Assembly (NCBI GenBank): GCA_016180135.1
Contig: JACPBV010000009.1
Location: forward strand, 19,248-83,247
Reading direction: 5' to 3'
Length of the DNA: 64,000 bases
Source of the DNA: Candidatus Woesearchaeota archaeon
GTDB lineage: Archaea; Nanobdellota; Nanobdellia; Woesearchaeales; JACPBV01
Part shown: piece by piece, positions 35,580 through 42,062 of the stretch
How the letters are laid out: each line of letters opens with the position of its first letter
Numbering within the stretch: position 1 is the first letter of the stretch
Notes under the pieces: model-generated
Database searches by the model: none
Told to the model about the DNA's origin: nothing
What the model saw: only the letters and a program-made list of their open reading frames with translations
Program-made: the position numbers and the translations under genes

Positions 35580-35830
35580 GGATTATGATTTCAATCTATC
35601 TTTTTTCTGTTAGGCACCACACATTTTTATGCTTTTCGATTAAAAAACAGTCATTATAGGGGCTATAACAAAAGAATTTTACAAGGAAAATCGGAAATAG
35701 GAGTATACAAAAACACCTAAAGAGTATACTGAACCCTCAAAAAGAACACCGAACCACCAAAAAAGAACTGAACTCCTAAAAGGAACTGCTGAAACACATA
35801 AAGAGCCTATTGACTTATCTGTTCCTGCCC

Positions 35831-36097
35831 TTACTTAATCTCTTTCTTGACTTCAGAAGCAAATTTCTCATTAGCCTTTTTCAGCCTGGAGCATCCTGAT
35901 ATAATCGCCTTCCGTGGATCATCTGCCTCGACAATCATCCGGGGTTTTCCCACAAGCGGATGTTTCACAAATATAGTGGCAACTTTGACGTCTTTGTCAT
36001 TCCACAATTCATTTTTGAGCGCATGGAGAAATCCGGTATTCTCATCAACCTCAAATATAAGTTTGTCTTTTTTTTCCTCGATAACAGTCATTTCCAT
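35831..36097 (-). CDS. rpoL: DNA-directed RNA polymerase subunit L (Rpo11)
   Basis: 88 aa. KLIFEVDENTGFLHALKNELWNDKDVKVATIFVKHPLVGKPRMIVEA aligns position-by-position with archaeal RpoL (E-x-H-T-L-x-N-x-L...HPL...). Confidence 0.75.
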   Translation of the reverse strand: MEMTVIEEKKDKLIFEVDENTGFLHALKNELWNDKDVKVATIFVKHPLVGKPRMIVEADDPRKAIISGCSRLKKANEKFASEVKKEIK

Positions 36098-36175
36098 GAT
36101 AAACTCCTCGATGCCTGAAGAAAATATGGCTTATTTAAAAAGCTTTCTTAATTCCATTTTTATCAGCCCCCATCC

Positions 36176-36880
36176 TTATCCTAAACAGTATCCTCCTCCA
36201 GTGCTGTGCCGCTCTTTGCATAGCTGCCCTCCCCCCCTCTCGAAATAAAAAGAGCTGACCCTTATCCGGTGTATTTTCCGTCGGTGGAAGCTCAGGGAAG
36301 CCTTTAAGGGAAAATTAAAATCCTTAACTTCTATTGCCGAAAATCCATGCCGGGATCCAAAGCCTGTGATGAACTCTTTTGTTGAGCTTTTATGGAAACT
36401 ATAAACTGAATCCCCCAGAGAAAACGCCTTTTCAAGGAACTCTTTGTCTGCATGCTCACTTTTTGTCCCAAAAGGCGGGTTCATGACAACTGTATCAACA
36501 CAATGCACGAATCTGCTGATATCCCCAGCCAGAAAATGGGTTTGGGATGCGCTTTTGCACTCACTTTTAATCTGGGGGGCGTTTTCCCTTGCAACCTCAA
36601 GTGACTCAGGATCGGCATCTACAAAATACACTTCACGTGCCTCTAAGAGGATGCACCCTATCCCTAATATCCCGCTCCCGCACCCGAGATCCGCTATGGT
36701 TTTCCCTTTTATATGCCCCCTCAAATAAGCATCCCAAAGGACTGTGGCAGCTATCTCAGGATCAGTAATATACTGCTCAAGTCTCACTTTTGGCTCATTT
36801 ACCCACCCTATCATCGAAAGAGCTTTAGCTAAACCCCCCTTGCTAAGCTTAATTGGTGTTTTTAATTGCGCCATAAACAC
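36176..36880 (-). CDS. Class I SAM-dependent N6-adenine-type methyltransferase (COG2263/METTL5-like)
   Basis: IADLGCGSGILGIGC (motif I), VYFVDAD, and VVMNPPFG (NPPF motif IV). The last ~35 codons look like a non-conserved extension. Confidence 0.75.
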   Translation of the reverse strand: MFMAQLKTPIKLSKGGLAKALSMIGWVNEPKVRLEQYITDPEIAATVLWDAYLRGHIKGKTIADLGCGSGILGIGCILLEAREVYFVDADPESLEVARENAPQIKSECKSASQTHFLAGDISRFVHCVDTVVMNPPFGTKSEHADKEFLEKAFSLGDSVYSFHKSSTKEFITGFGSRHGFSAIEVKDFNFPLKASLSFHRRKIHRIRVSSFYFERGGGQLCKERHSTGGGYCLG

Positions 36881-37608
36881 TTTCTTTCTCCGTTATTCAA
36901 CCCTAGGCTGAAAAGCATTACGATTCAATCACAAATAAGTTTATATAATCCGAACAGCCACTTATTTGTACCATTTTCTTTCTCTAAGGCATGTCTTGAA
37001 GACAAAACAATAAGAATTAACTCTCACTTTTTATACTTTTCCCATCCTATTATGGTTCCTCAAACCAATATAATTTATGGCCTAAGTCATTCAACTCAAA
37101 CTAATATCTATAAACCCTTATCCCCCCTCATCAATTTGGACCTTATCAAAAGCCGCATCTTTACGCCAATTAATGGTTCTATCTAACCAAAAGTCATAAT
37201 AACCAACAATGATTTTCTATAAAACTAGGCGCAATAGAGCGGATAATTTAACAATTTATTAATATGCAAGGCACAATAATACGCCTATACAACCTCCTTT
37301 CAACTCTTTTTCCATATTTAACTGTTACTCTTTAACTCACACTTTCACCAAAAAAATATTTCCAAAAAAGGCTCTAAAAACCTTAAAAAATATTACAAAA
37401 AAATTCTCCAGGATCATGCAAATCTTAATCTCTTTGAACCTCATTTTTTTGCCAACTCCGCTAAATTTTTCTTTCAAAAAATCATACAAAAAACCACCGC
37501 CCGGGCCGCCTTTGTTAACCCAAACCACCTCAGAAATCCAACAAAAAAGGACAATTTTTTTATGACTCTTCTGCTGCCCCCACACTTTTAATCCCTCATA
37601 CCCTCCCC

Positions 37609-37751
37609 TCCCCCCCCATTCCCGCCCAAGTCCCAGCGCAGTCCCATTTGATTCCCAGGACAATCCCACATAAGTCCCAAAAATGTACACACTACCGTCG
37701 GAAAGATATTCCCAATTTAGTCCCATAATCTTCCCAAAATATTCCCAGGAA
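37609..37751. repeat. 11-bp-phased array of A[GT]TCCCA (9 perfect TCCCA cores plus 2 degenerate)
   Basis: TCCCA starts at 37631, 37642, 37653, 37664 and 37675, then at 37710, 37721, 37732 and 37743. Degenerate TCCCC/TCCCG copies at 37609 and 37620 are in phase. The array ends 14 nt before a TATA box. Confidence 0.9.
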
Positions 37752-37760
37752 AGGACAAGA

Positions 37761-37768
37761 TTTAAATA
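37761..37768 (+). promoter_or_regulatory. TATA-box candidate (leaderless spacing) for the 289-aa coiled-coil/wHTH gene
   Basis: TTTAAATA is centred ~27 nt upstream of ATG 37792. Confidence 0.45.
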
Positions 37769-37791
37769 GTTCCGGTTCTCATACCCAAAAA

Positions 37792-38661
37792 ATGCCGCCA
37801 TTCAGGAGCTCAAAAAAAGTAGAACGGGCAATCCTGCACATCGAACAGCTTCACCATCTCCTGGGAAACTCATTCCAGAATGTTCATAAGGACATCCAGC
37901 TCATCTTCGCCAGGATGGAAAATCTTGAGCAGAAGCATGCCTCGGGAAAAGCCCATTCAGAGAAAGTATTGCGCCATCACAACTCTCTTTTTGCAACGGT
38001 TCAGGAGCTCAGGAAATTAGCCCTTTCACAGCACCACCATCTCAAGAATCTTTATCAGAAAATTGCCTCGCAGAGCCTTGAGATTGCCGGAATGAAAACA
38101 GATATAGAATCATCGAGATTATCTAAGGAAAAAGTCAGGGAGATCATCGATGAGGTCCTCGGGTTAGACAGCCTCAATCAATCCATACAGGCAACTCAGG
38201 AGGAGATAGCCGAGCTGAGGAAGCATCACTCCGAGCTCTTGAGGAGCCATCTAGAATTGGCTCAGAAGCATCACGAATTTGCCGCCGTCCAGGCCCAGGC
38301 TTTGCCCCAGCAGCAGCCCCGGCTTGAGATGAAAGAACTCACTGAAAAACTTGGCAGGCTGGTGGAAAGGCGCTCTCTTGCCCACGAAAAGATCCTTAAG
38401 AAGATCGCTAAAAACACAAAGGCTTATGTCCATACTATTGCCTTAAGCCTCATCAAAAAATACGGCCAGCGCACTGCCTCCCAGCTGAAAGAGATGATAG
38501 TGGACGAGCAGGGCCTTTGCTCGAAATCTTCCTTCTACCGCCTTCTGGAGGAGATTGAGCAGGACCCCGACATCGCCGTCATCAGGGAAGGGCGCGAAAA
38601 GAAGTATCTTGCGAAGCTCCCTGTTGCTCAAAAAGTGAGAGAAAAACCGAGGAAAAAGTAG
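37792..38661 (+). CDS. Coiled-coil protein with C-terminal winged-helix DNA-binding domain (289 aa)
   Basis: Heptad-rich, His/Gln-rich N-terminal 190 aa. C-terminus: IALSLIKKYGQRTASQLKEMIVDEQGLCSKSSFYRLLEEIEQDPDIAVIREGREKKY (wHTH-like). Confidence 0.65.
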   Translation: MPPFRSSKKVERAILHIEQLHHLLGNSFQNVHKDIQLIFARMENLEQKHASGKAHSEKVLRHHNSLFATVQELRKLALSQHHHLKNLYQKIASQSLEIAGMKTDIESSRLSKEKVREIIDEVLGLDSLNQSIQATQEEIAELRKHHSELLRSHLELAQKHHEFAAVQAQALPQQQPRLEMKELTEKLGRLVERRSLAHEKILKKIAKNTKAYVHTIALSLIKKYGQRTASQLKEMIVDEQGLCSKSSFYRLLEEIEQDPDIAVIREGREKKYLAKLPVAQKVREKPRKK

Positions 38662-38675
38662 CCATCAAACGCTCC

Positions 38676-38825
38676 TGCATACTCAATGGTAAACTGACAA
38701 CATTGAGGGGGGTGAGGTTGAGCTCTTCTGTCCAAATCTCGTGCATACTCAAAGGTAAACTGACAACCGAAGTCAGAACCCTAACTGGAATCAGAACCAT
38801 AACCGAATTCAGAACCCTCGCAGCC
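38676..38825. repeat. Composite direct repeats: 26-bp x2 (66-bp period), then 18-bp x3
   Basis: TGCATACTCAA[T/A]GGTAAACTGACAAC occurs at 38676-38701 and 38742-38767. TCAGAACC cores lie at 38773, 38791 and 38809. Confidence 0.85.
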
Positions 38826-38991
38826 AATCAGGCCACACGCTCCTCCTTACTCACCTGAAAACTCGGCATAGATTGTTGCCATACTGAAAAATATTCTCCA
38901 ACCTATATACTCCACAATAACAATCTATTTAAACCCCTCCGAGCAGAAAAAGCCTCCCGCGTCACAGCGGAAAAAATTTGGGGGTGTGCAT

Positions 38992-39534
38992 ATGTTAAGT
39001 GATGAAAGGAAAGCTAGGCTCTACTATGAGCTGTTTACAGACGATAACCGGAAGCTGCAGGATGCATTCTGCCAGGTCCGCGATGAATTCGAAGAGCATT
39101 TGACGGCAATCAACGAAAATACTGCCGAAGTGCAGGCAGCCAACGAATTCTTGATCAACGTTGAGCAGAAGATGGCCAAGATTGAGGATAGGCTCGACAA
39201 GCTCTGCCTTTTCTTTGAAAAAGCCGGTCTCCCTATCGAGCAGGAGCAGGAATTCCAGCCGATTAAGCTAACCAAGCGTGAACAGGAAGTTTTTTTGGTC
39301 CTCTACACTCAGGAAGACATTAAAGGCTCTTTGACGTACCTTGACATCGCCCACTGTACAGGCCTGCCTGAAGACCTTGTTGCGTCCTACCTTTCAAGCA
39401 TGATGGGCAAAGGTGTCCCGATAAGGAAAAACTACGTCCATAATCAGGCCCATTTCAGCTTAAATCCAAAGTTTAAGACTGTCCAGGCGAAGGAAAACCT
39501 CCTTCAGATAGAGCAGAAGATGCTGGTGTATTGA
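38992..39534 (+). CDS. Coiled-coil protein with C-terminal winged-helix/HTH domain (180 aa from ATG 38992)
   Basis: The N-terminal helical region has a LINVEQKMAKIEDRLDKL heptad pattern. C-terminus: LTKREQEVFLVLYTQEDIKGSLTYLDIAHCTGLPEDLVASYLSSMMGKGVPI. GGGGGTG lies upstream of the ATG. Confidence 0.65.
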   Translation: MLSDERKARLYYELFTDDNRKLQDAFCQVRDEFEEHLTAINENTAEVQAANEFLINVEQKMAKIEDRLDKLCLFFEKAGLPIEQEQEFQPIKLTKREQEVFLVLYTQEDIKGSLTYLDIAHCTGLPEDLVASYLSSMMGKGVPIRKNYVHNQAHFSLNPKFKTVQAKENLLQIEQKMLVY

Positions 39535-39539
39535 CACCA

Positions 39540-39585
39540 TTTTTTTTAATTTTTTGTCTTCTTCTCAATTTTTTCTATCGCCTGT
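39540..39585 (+). terminator. Oligo-T terminator candidate
   Basis: T8 at 39540-39547, T6 at 39550-39555 and further T-runs lie directly after the stop at 39534. Confidence 0.45.
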
Positions 39586-39930
39586 CATTTTTTCTTATCC
39601 TTCTTTTATCCGGAAAACTCTCCCCAATTCTCCTTTTTTGGAAGCATGATTTTTCAGAAAAAAACAGATTAAAACTTTCGGCAAAAACTTAAAATATCTA
39701 ATATTGACAAATGCCTACAACTTATAACAAAAAACTAAAACATTTAATCAACAGAATTCACAGGTTTTCAGTCCAATCTCTGCCCCAAAAATGCATTTGA
39801 TCTTCCAAGAATTCTTTATCTAACAATCCACGAGTAAAAATGTCGTCTAATGCAAATTGTACGACCTTTTCGAAAAATTTAAATAAGAAATGGCAAAAAT
39901 GCATAAATCAGATTAAAATCAGGTAACCTC

Positions 39931-40037
39931 AAGCCAATAATTGGAATTAAGCCAATGATGGGGTTTAAGCCCAGATGAGAATTAATCCAATGATGAGAAT
40001 CAAGCCAATGATGAGAATTAATCAAAAGATAAGATTA
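39931..40037. repeat. 18-bp tandem repeat x6 (AAGCCAATGATGAGAATT-like)
   Basis: Units start at 39931, 39949, 39967, 39984, 40002 and 40020. The array ends 12 nt before the GTG start of the recombinase. An in-frame TAG at 40047-40049 excludes an N-terminal extension of that gene. Confidence 0.85.
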
Positions 40038-40049
40038 ACCTTCGATTAG

Positions 40050-40937
40050 GTGATTAAAATCCAAAAAGATCTTTTCCAGGAGTTTGAAACTGAACTGAGG
40101 ATTAGGGCATACAGTCCAAGGACAATCGAGAGCTATCTCTATGAGACAAAGCGTTTTTTTGATTTCCTCAGCCTTGGAAAGGCGGCATCGGAGTTCCAGA
40201 GCTCTTTGCTCGACGAAGCCTCAAGGCCGGTTCAAAGCATATCCCAAAAGGACCTGAAATCCTACCTCGCAAAACTGATGGCTGAAAAAAAGCTCAAACC
40301 AGCTTCAATTCACCTTATCCTTTCGGCTTTAAAGTTTTTTTTCAGGGAGATAGCAAAAAGAGACATCTTTGAAGGCATAAAAATGCCGAAAAAGCAGCGA
40401 AAACTGCCTGAAATCTTATCGAAAGAAGAAATCGTTTTACTGATGGAAAAAATAAAAAATAAAAAGCACCGCATCCTTATTGACCTTCTTTATGGCTCCG
40501 GATTGAGAGTTTCTGAAGCAGTAAGCCTTAAAATCTCTGATATTGACCAAAATCAAAAGATAAACATTCTCAAAGGCGGCAAGGGCGGCAAGGACCGCAG
40601 GATTATCCTCTCAGCCAAGCTAAGGAAGTCTATTGATTCATACGTGAAAAGGAGAAAAGACAGGAATCCCTACCTTTTTCACTCCAGAACCACCCATCTA
40701 ACCTCAAGGCAAGCGCAAAGGATCGTGAAAAAAGCAGCTGAGAGGGCAGGTATAAAAAGAAGAGTCCACTGCCACATGTTAAGGGCAAGTTTTGCCACTC
40801 ATCTGCTCAATGCAGGCGTCGATATCCGCAAAATCCAGGTCCTGTTAGGCCACGAAAAAATCTCAACGACGGAAATCTACACAAAAGTTTCAACTGAAGG
40901 GCTGGAAAACATAACCTCGCCGATGGATAAGCTCTAA
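40050..40937 (+). CDS. xerA: Tyrosine recombinase, XerA/XerC/D-like (295 aa, GTG start)
   Basis: N-terminal SAM-like core-binding domain (RIRAYSPRTIESYLYETKRFFDFL). Catalytic residues: GSGLRVSEAVSL (Arg), HMLRASFATHL (H-x-x-R), LLGHEKISTTEIYTKV (His, Tyr). Confidence 0.85.
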   Translation: MIKIQKDLFQEFETELRIRAYSPRTIESYLYETKRFFDFLSLGKAASEFQSSLLDEASRPVQSISQKDLKSYLAKLMAEKKLKPASIHLILSALKFFFREIAKRDIFEGIKMPKKQRKLPEILSKEEIVLLMEKIKNKKHRILIDLLYGSGLRVSEAVSLKISDIDQNQKINILKGGKGGKDRRIILSAKLRKSIDSYVKRRKDRNPYLFHSRTTHLTSRQAQRIVKKAAERAGIKRRVHCHMLRASFATHLLNAGVDIRKIQVLLGHEKISTTEIYTKVSTEGLENITSPMDKL

Positions 40938-41169
40938 GATAATATTTTGTTTTAACCGCATTTTAACCGCATTAGAACCATTTTCAGATAGGCAAAAAAC
41001 TTTTATCATGAAAATCTATTTAATCTTTTTTTGCTGCATCCTTGAACCTCTAATTGAGAAATTTGATTTGAAAAAGATTTTATTAACCACTTGCCAATAT
41101 TGCTCTGCCCACTCTTTTCAGCACTAAGAAAGTCAAAAAATATTATTTAAATATTTCTGAAAAGAAAGA

Positions 41170-41367: not shown

Positions 41368-42062
41368 AGATAGTCACTATAAAGTAGAATTAAATCTGTT
41401 TTAAAAACATTTGCATTTTGAAACTGAGTTTTTTAAAAGTATATCCTACAATCTATATACCCCAAAATACATAACATAAACTATATACCCAAGAACTAAT
41501 TTCTACCAAAAATAATCCATTCAATATTGAAAAAAAAAGATTAGCTCATACGGCAATTGAGAAAAAAGTGAGAGTTAAAACCTCGAGTTATGAAACACCT
41601 TCTTTAATCCACCACAAATGCCAAAACAAAAGCCGGAAGTCACCAAAAAAGTCAGCATAAAACCAAAGATTCGCCAAAGCTTTAGAGAATCTTCTGTTAG
41701 GCACCATTGATGTTAAAACGTAATTCCAGGTTATAACGCTTATAACCTCAAATATTTGGCTGATTAAACTTTTGGGAATCTTTTGAAAAAAGAAATAAAC
41801 CCTAATTTCAATAAAAACCTGTTTCTTGGGAAGATCTTACTGCCCAACTCAAGCCTAAATGCCAGATGCTGAACTTGGCCGCCTTTTTCACAAACAATGG
41901 CTAGAATAACCTTAATATCCGATATGCATTTAAGCTACAATTACTGGATAATTTTGGAAAGTGAGGGATGATAAAGGCCAGGAGATAAATAGAATAATCT
42001 AAACCCCCTCAAACAGGAGAAAATCTTCATTTAGGGAAGAAATCCCATTATCTTTGCAACCA

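Follow-up and report, generated by a model that had tools for sequence, protein, structure and literature searches.

A conserved array of phased 11-bp TCCCA repeats upstream of a winged-helix gene in Woesearchaeales: a probable cooperative platform for the adjacent gene product

Introduction

The closest described counterparts of the element reported here are two sites that combine repeated binding sequences with the promoter of the binding protein. R1 parC has ten 11-bp iterons, five on each side of a 39-bp spacer; one ParR dimer binds each iteron, and the site is both operator and centromere (PMC2241845). The tubC site, also split into blocks, always precedes tubR; its version in prophage c-st contains TTGAC pentamers spaced 6 bp apart (an 11-bp period), and the protein-DNA complex covers and represses the promoter (PMC6009700). 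We describe here an array of TCCCA direct repeats, also with an 11-bp period, upstream of a gene for a 289-amino-acid (289-aa) protein with a predicted coiled coil and winged helix in a member of the archaeal order Woesearchaeales. The array lies within a 64,000-nucleotide stretch (contig C24, positions 19248-83247; hereafter the window) of a 1.51-Mb assembly that has 44 contigs and is 88% complete.

To our knowledge, almost nothing is known about the organization, segregation or regulation of the ~1-Mb chromosomes of DPANN archaea, and all of the Woesearchaeales genomes that we examined are from uncultured organisms. We found that the array is a real and undescribed cis-element that is conserved across the order. 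The searchable literature contained no prior description of it. From comparison of sequences among genomes, we think that the array is probably a cooperative platform for the 289-aa protein and that, bound there, the protein autoregulates its own leaderless promoter.

Results

The array is two blocks of 11-bp units next to a TATA box

The window contains nine head-to-tail copies of TCCCA in two blocks, five copies in the distal block and four in the proximal block (Table 1). Direct reading of the sequence gives a period of exactly 11 bp within each block. Two degenerate copies, TCCCC and TCCCG, precede the distal block in the same register, and the 10-mer ATTCCCAGGA is present at both 37651 and 37741. 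All of these positions agree with an initial annotation of the window that was made from the sequence alone. That annotation also placed all of the sites on one face of the DNA. The step between blocks is 35 bp, 2 bp off a multiple of 11, and the blocks are only approximately in phase with each other. The last TCCCA ends 13 nt (rather than the annotated 14 bp) before the TATA box, and judged by position only, this is where an operator of the 289-aa gene would lie. The TATA box, TTTAAATA at 37761, and the ATG at 37792 had been described as being at leaderless distance; both positions were confirmed, and their geometry is conserved in orthologues (see below).

The regular spacing had been judged too improbable to be chance, and our controls agree. 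The triple TCCCA-N6-TCCCA-N6-TCCCA has five matches in the window, every one within the array, and none in 100 dinucleotide-preserving shuffles of the window. The word TCCCA is not itself enriched in the window (168 observed vs 181 expected). A genome-wide search found no second triple anywhere in the 1.51-Mb assembly, and the array is unique there. Tandem Repeats Finder detects the 11/22-bp periodicity only weakly because conservation is confined to the unit core.

We considered and rejected several other functions for the repeats. A TCCCA regulon was rejected since TCCCA pairs outside the array, counted genome-wide, show no preference for the 11-bp spacing (n = 7, compared to n = 4 at 10 bp and n = 7 at 12 bp). 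A coding function was rejected on the grounds that the conserved period of 11 is not divisible by 3 and that the number of units varies among relatives; a 154-aa minus-strand open reading frame that crosses the array (37337-37801) is an artefact of the G-poor plus strand. An RNA element was rejected because Rfam gave no match at E<=1 over 36700-40100 and neither strand had a folding signal (z-scores +0.25 and -0.79).

The layout of the array is conserved across the order

We compared the locus at two levels. At the family level, the 289-aa gene was present in 11 of 14 genomes, and nine orthologues had usable upstream regions. At the order level, we analysed 151 genomes by profile search, took the 30 best loci, and measured 38 loci overall. 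The 289-aa family was found in 83 of the 151 genomes, and approximately 51 of these 83 have a true orthologue, that is, one adjoining the gene for a 180-aa protein that follows the 289-aa gene in the window.

We found that the layout of the array was conserved with the gene. It was present upstream of all nine family orthologues, at approximately 26 of the 30 order-level loci, and at approximately 35 of the 38 loci overall, in many families. The initial annotation had named absence of the array from orthologous loci as grounds for giving up a regulatory or origin function; these counts show the reverse. In the common layout, 4-7 units form the distal block, and a ~35-bp step, a proximal block of 4 units, ~18 bp, the TATA box and the ATG follow in that order. 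The inter-block step is 32-36 bp at most loci. The four-unit proximal block starts 80-83 bp before the ATG at approximately 24 of the 38 loci, and the TATA box is 30-33 bp before the ATG at nearly all of them. In the family orthologues the TATA box is TTTAAATA or TTTATATA, and the ATG follows ~31 bp after its start. This is the spacing that would be expected of a leaderless archaeal mRNA.

A matrix of 277 units has the consensus Y-A-K-T-C-C-C-A-n-n-A. Positions outside the core that was used to select the units are also conserved (Y at -3, A at -2 in 84%, K at -1, and A at +7 in 74%), and the inter-core bases vary freely. A unit thus has approximately 9 informative positions out of 11, a number that agrees with the footprint of a single winged-helix domain.

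Other parts of the region recur among relatives. At the position equivalent to ACACTACCGTCGGAAAGA in the spacer of the window, relatives have a motif of the type TTTTCTCGTCGR-AAA. Some genomes contain additional modules upstream, in which extra copies of the spacer motif have TCCCA units on both sides, (TCCCA)n-motif-(TCCCA)n. At approximately 11 of the 38 loci there is an inverted TGGGA 10 nt after the start of the TATA box; the window has TCCGG there.

The distal edge of the array has perfect and apparently young tandem copies in two relatives, six of CCTCATCCCAG at 11 bp in locus L007 (G005:C9) and five of GCCCCTCCAT at 10 bp in L009 (G006:C33). In the window, degenerate units in a C-run occupy the equivalent place. 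It seems that slippage adds units to the array at this edge. Contig ends fall in or next to the array in several assemblies (the end of G135:C12, the starts of G135:C21 and G081:C45, and G150:C184 and G114:C364), and the array appears to break short-read assemblies. Upstream of the array, 237-560 bp before the 289-aa ATG, a TATA-like CTATTTAAA followed by C or T is present in seven of ten family genomes (G001, G002, G005, G007, G008, G009 and G010) and is absent or degenerate in the window. On the minus strand this element resembles the promoter of the 289-aa gene, and it may be a divergent promoter.

An array of this kind might require no specific protein and simply be curved DNA, a histone-positioning sequence or a slippage satellite. 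An 11-bp period would phase any bend, A-tracts follow each TCCCA in many relatives, and the young tandem copies in L007 and L009 are a sign of slippage. However, the conserved part of the unit is a specific heptamer and not an A-tract, and the inter-core spacers of the array in the window are not A-tracts. In addition, among families whose 289-aa proteins are only 30-45% identical, the spacers diverge but the unit cores are retained, and block size and distance to the TATA box are fixed. We find an explanation without a specific protein scarcely credible.

The array and the 289-aa gene occur together

We found that the array is confined to this order and linked to the 289-aa gene. The strict triple was present in 37 of the 151 order genomes, and a reversed-sequence control gave 0/151. 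In a sample of 401 genomes from the phylum, the triple was found in 39, all of them from this order (2 matches in the control), and in none of the ~118 sister-order genomes in that sample. Array matches cluster at one locus per genome. Genomes with the array almost always had the 289-aa family (36/37), compared to 47 of the 114 other genomes (Fisher p=1.3e-10). G027 is the only exception, and its match comes from an unrelated tandem of TGGGACTTTTC.

Genomes that have the 180-aa gene and no 289-aa gene are informative. In these, the methyltransferase gene that lies on the other side of the array in the window and the 180-aa gene are directly divergent, and the ~90-140-bp spacer between them contains no array. 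The gene and the array therefore seem to have been gained or lost as one unit. The whole module is absent from about half of the order. Genome G068 encodes a 149-aa mini-version of the protein that keeps the N-terminal motif and the winged helix, preceded by a clean 4+4 array and a TATA box. Taken together, co-occurrence, paired gain or loss, and the mini-version make the best case from computation that the array and the 289-aa family are likely partners.

It is also conceivable that the array is an activating or repressing site for some other factor, for example the 180-aa protein, and that the 289-aa protein is just the regulated product. The 180-aa protein too has a coiled coil and a winged helix and is encoded next door at nearly all loci. 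The proximal four units abut the TFB-recognition element (BRE), and archaeal activators usually bind against the BRE. The spacer motif implies at least one further binding specificity. However, the 180-aa family is present in 129 of the 151 order genomes (102 of the 115 high-quality ones), most of which have no array, and its association with the array is not significant (p=0.10). G068 has the array, yet no 180-aa gene was detected in that genome. A single genomic target points most simply to the product of the adjacent gene, and we consider control by another factor quite unlikely.

The 289-aa protein is predicted to end in a winged helix

The 289-aa protein is single-copy in the genome and has >300 known homologues. 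Searches of Pfam, NCBIfam and PDB sequences with the protein returned coiled-coil noise only. An alignment shows a conserved N-terminal motif, SFxNVxxDT..I..WL.YL, a helical middle part of variable length, and a strongly conserved C-terminal region of ~85 residues with a nearly invariant LCSKSSFYRLLEE. Like the TCCCA core, the recognition helix SKSSFYR is nearly invariant.

The AlphaFold model of the protein (mean predicted local distance difference test score 85) has helices at residues 6-107, 112-169 and 178-207, followed by a winged helix with the order helix-strand-helix-helix-strand-strand. Foldseek matches cover only this last domain and are all DNA-binding winged helices, including Hop2, ArsR/SmtB, BlaI/MecI, TubR, AspA and SSV1 F-112 (all E>=0.008). 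TubR and AspA are centromere binders. The match to TubR (3m8e) is weak (E ~0.056), is one among many generic winged helices, and has no counterpart in the sequence searches of Pfam, NCBIfam or PDB. The model supports the winged helix as the probable fold class and supports no specific family.

In public records the protein is called as P0001 (248 aa), with Met42 of the 289-aa protein as its first residue. Because the N-terminal motif and the spacing between TATA box and ATG are both conserved, they indicate that the ATG at 37792 is probably the true start.

The 180-aa protein has one long helix and a winged helix. We detected no homology between it and the 289-aa protein (BLASTP E=3.7; hhalign probability 4.7%). 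The 180-aa gene is usually divergent from the methyltransferase-rpoL genes. Its product is an uncharacterised, near-core DNA-binding protein.

A probable replication origin of canonical layout lies on another contig

The initial annotation offered an iteron block of a replication locus as a second interpretation of the array, and our results disfavour it. A pair of origin recognition boxes (ORBs), CTCCACAGGAAACGGTGGGGTC and CTCCACAGGAAACCATAGGGTGG (of the type CTCCACAGGAAAC...GGGGT), is inverted around a ~160-bp, very AT-rich tract on contig C18 (G000:C18:35729-36150). The element, at 35729-36200, lies directly upstream of the only orc1/cdc6 gene in the genome and looks like a canonical replication origin. 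Each of eight genomes examined had one orc1/cdc6 gene, never at the array locus. Genome G029 is closed (1.30 Mb), and its 289-aa gene (437 kb) is ~330 kb from cdc6 (765 kb). Cumulative GC skew, which is only a weak guide in archaeal genomes of small size, has no turning point at 37.7 kb in the window.

The array might still be a second, Orc1-independent origin of the iteron type, with the winged-helix protein as a Rep-like initiator. Iteron replicons (RepA of pPS10, RepE of F, pi of R6K) use 17-22-bp iterons and a Rep protein with two winged helices, and autorepression occurs at inverted half-sites. By analogy with such plasmids, the direct repeats and the inverted copy at the promoter in about a third of relatives could be the parts of an origin, and an A-rich, G-poor, gene-free stretch of ~700 bp adjoins the array. 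However, the units are 11 bp and not 17-22 bp, and the protein has one winged helix after ~200 helical residues in place of a two-domain Rep. About half of the order has no such module and C18 carries a canonical origin, and we consider a second origin at the array very unlikely.

The locus is part of the core chromosome

The array is at the right-hand end of a gene-free, G-poor region of ~900 bp that is bounded on the other side by the methyltransferase gene. Coordinates of the array and of the genes around it are given in Table 1. The neighbours in the window are genes for the methyltransferase, RpoL, the 180-aa winged-helix protein, XerA (the archaeal recombinase for chromosome-dimer resolution), a 65-aa coiled coil, and PAC2. 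The RpoL-type subunit encoded nearby is in keeping with an archaeal genome, as are the public records, in which homologues of the 289-aa protein are labelled Woesearchaeota or Nanoarchaeota.

Table 1. Features of the array and of the adjoining genes (positions in the window)
Feature	Coordinates	Strand	Basis
Methyltransferase gene, divergent, at the other side of the gene-free region	36176..36880	-	Gene calls, synteny
Two degenerate distal units, within a C-run	37609..37630	+	TCCCC at 37609, TCCCG at 37620
Distal block, five head-to-tail 11-bp units	37628..37682	+	TCCCA at 37631, 37642, 37653, 37664, 37675
Spacer with second conserved motif, ACACTACCGTCGGAAAGA	37683..37706	+	Core CCGTCGG at 37695-37701
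Proximal block, four 11-bp units	37707..37751	+	TCCCA at 37710, 37721, 37732, 37743
BRE-like purine stretch, then TATA box TTTAAATA (37761-37768); putative promoter	37752..37768	+	Promoter role from sequence and position
289-aa coiled-coil/winged-helix gene; likely array ligand	37792..38661	+	Alignment, structure model
180-aa coiled-coil/winged-helix gene; conserved neighbour	38992..39534	+	In 129/151 order genomes
xerA, third gene of the conserved cluster	40050..40937	+	NCBIfam NF040815, 247 bits vs cut-off 220; Pfam Phage_integrase

Nine family genomes share the gene order uppS - 187-aa - rpoL - methyltransferase, followed across the array by 289-aa - 180-aa - xerA, and its central genes are retained at most order-level loci. 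A mobile element or integrated plasmid was rejected on this conserved synteny and on the score of the recombinase, which identifies it as XerA. Judged by gene content and order, the locus is core chromosomal and not an island.

Several other repeats are present near these genes. Between the 289-aa and 180-aa genes, at 38676-38825, there are composite repeats, a 24-nt unit twice and then an 18-bp unit three times. The gap between the two genes is ~325 bp here compared to ~80-160 bp in most relatives, and the repeats therefore look lineage-specific. Five tandem units of 17-18 bp, AAGCCAATGATGAGAATT, occupy 39931-40021, and ~28 nt separate the last of them from the GTG at which xerA begins. On the other side of xerA, 13 nt past its stop, there are approximately three copies of an 11-bp unit, TTTTAACCGCA (40950-40982). 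In the gene-poor region downstream of xerA, at 41731-41749, is a perfect palindrome, GGTTATAACGCTTATAACC (GGTTATAA-CGC-TTATAACC). We rejected this palindrome as a dif-like site, since its 3-bp spacer does not fit Xer sites and the pattern is absent at the equivalent place in relatives. TTATAA-N3-TTATAA has one further match in the genome (contig C9), with flanks that differ from those of the palindrome.

Discussion

A platform for the product of the adjacent gene

The initial annotation proposed that the array could be an autoregulatory operator for the adjacent winged-helix protein. Comparison among genomes supports this proposal well, through the conserved geometry of the promoter and the co-occurrence of array and gene. 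From the same comparisons we infer the identity of the binder, its stoichiometry, its cooperativity and the regulatory outcome, and a plausible arrangement is as follows. The ligand would most likely be the 289-aa protein itself, with one winged-helix domain on each 11-bp unit and thus nine good and two degenerate units to fill. The recognition helix would read TCCCA in the major groove while the wing touches the A/T-rich 5' flank. Neighbouring domains would then sit head-to-tail along a single face of the helix, and the coiled coils would tether them and make binding cooperative. With 11 bp per unit and ~10.5 bp per turn, the row of proteins is expected to follow a shallow left-handed path, which would favour wrapping or a ring.

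Occupancy of the array beside the BRE and TATA box would feed back on transcription of the 289-aa gene. Because the proximal block ends at the BRE, bound protein could either help or hinder TBP and TFB. In the approximately one third of relatives that have the inverted TGGGA after the TATA box, protein bound there might hinder TBP and TFB and add to the feedback.

Several observations weigh against an autoregulatory operator bound by the 289-aa protein. First, in six genomes (G089, G029, G026, G045, G105 and G155) the 289-aa gene is inverted and divergent from the 180-aa gene, and the TCCCA/TGGGA cluster is beyond the 3' end of the 289-aa gene. The cluster therefore cannot be a simple promoter operator in those genomes. 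Second, the structural matches to the protein are weak (best E=0.008) and limited to the C-terminal domain. Third, recognition helix and motif are both nearly invariant, and there is no covariation to tie one to the other; we discarded covariation as a test of the ligand because it is uninformative with an invariant helix. Variant units (AGTCTCA, AGTCCTA and AGTCTTA) occur with no change in the recognition helix. The ligand could be a different protein, such as the 180-aa protein or a binder of the spacer motif.

A centromere-like role

The clusters in the six inverted-gene genomes contain 11-bp runs, TGGGAcagTCCCA palindromes, and an TTTTATCGACGG-type motif (CGTCG). In G089, approximately 17 units persist in three blocks, and the TATA box that usually follows is gone. 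The array has stayed with the inverted gene, a hint that it may have a separate role. We give this argument limited weight, as the protein tree does not resolve a single old inversion; a single origin of the arrangement is unsupported for the same reason.

Such a role might be that of a centromere-like site or landmark, a protein-coated complex for pairing, anchoring or segregation of the chromosome, with control of the promoter a by-product. The initial annotation had likewise offered a partition locus as one reading. In design, the array would match R1 parC and tubC: split blocks with an 11-bp period, placed ahead of the gene for the presumed binder. There is one such locus per genome, the gene cluster includes xerA, and the motif cluster persists off the promoter, together with the CGTCG motif, in the inverted-gene genomes. 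However, no nucleoside triphosphatase (NTPase) of the ParA, ParM or TubZ type is encoded among the conserved cluster genes, and roughly half of the order does without the module. Closed and near-closed relatives place the locus neither near cdc6 nor opposite it, and the tree cannot date the inverted arrangement as old. We consider a primarily centromere-like function unlikely, but serious enough to keep in mind. A more specific version holds that Woesearchaeales chromosomes carry a single landmark beside xerA, where a wrapped complex of the lineage-specific coiled-coil/winged-helix protein on 9-20 phased TCCCA sites serves as an NTPase-free centromere or anchor and autoregulation is a side effect; we regard this version, too, as unlikely and speculative.

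The platform of the 289-aa protein is the interpretation that we favour, and either outcome would be of interest. As an autoregulated operator and nothing more, the array would be unusually large and regular compared to the archaeal operators known to us. If it is centromere-like, it would be, as far as we know, the first such candidate for the group, and it would place an architecture of the parC/tubC type on a cellular chromosome. In either case, the analysis defines a module of two parts that occur together, a unique and highly ordered DNA platform and a small family of proteins. It should be tractable, because its consensus is clear (YAKTCCCAnnA at 11 bp), its promoter geometry is fixed and a minimal version of 149 aa exists in nature. 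There are also practical consequences: the array appears to break assemblies, and gene callers seem to choose the wrong start for the 289-aa gene.

Comparison with known systems

Like archaeal oriC, the locus is found once per genome and consists of recognition elements repeated within a long intergenic region. Unlike oriC, the repeats are direct and are not inverted around a DNA unwinding element, and sequence and neighbourhood differ, with cdc6 on C18 and the array on C24. Direct repeats beside a winged-helix gene, and possibly an inverted copy at its own promoter, would be features in common with iteron replicons. In contrast to those replicons, half of the order can do without the module, and the canonical origin is elsewhere.

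PhoB-OmpR proteins bind as head-to-tail winged helices to tandem 11-bp repeats (7 conserved and 4 variable positions) against the core promoter, much as proposed here. They are response regulators with a receiver domain that act at many promoters, whereas the 289-aa protein has no receiver domain and the array is a single site.

With no ribbon-helix-helix protein and no ParM or TubZ, the array formally belongs to neither type II nor type III partition systems. Like tubC/TubR of pBtoxis and the C. botulinum prophage c-st, it combines a predicted winged-helix binder with split blocks of direct repeats upstream of the gene for that binder. Unlike those systems, which are found on bacterial plasmids and phages, the locus has no TubZ GTPase gene; TubR is small and without the ~200-residue coiled coil, and its structural likeness to the 289-aa protein is generic (E ~0.06). 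Compared to R1, ParR is a ribbon-helix-helix protein and the protein here a predicted winged helix on a long coiled coil; the R1 promoter is between the blocks and the TATA box here follows the proximal block; and the archaeal element is chromosomal, restricted to one order, and has no ParM-like ATPase. What it shares with R1 parC/ParR is the plan of the site: two blocks of 11-bp direct repeats (5+5 in R1 and 5(+2)+4 here), separated by a non-repeat gap of 35-39 bp and located upstream of the gene for the known or presumed binder.

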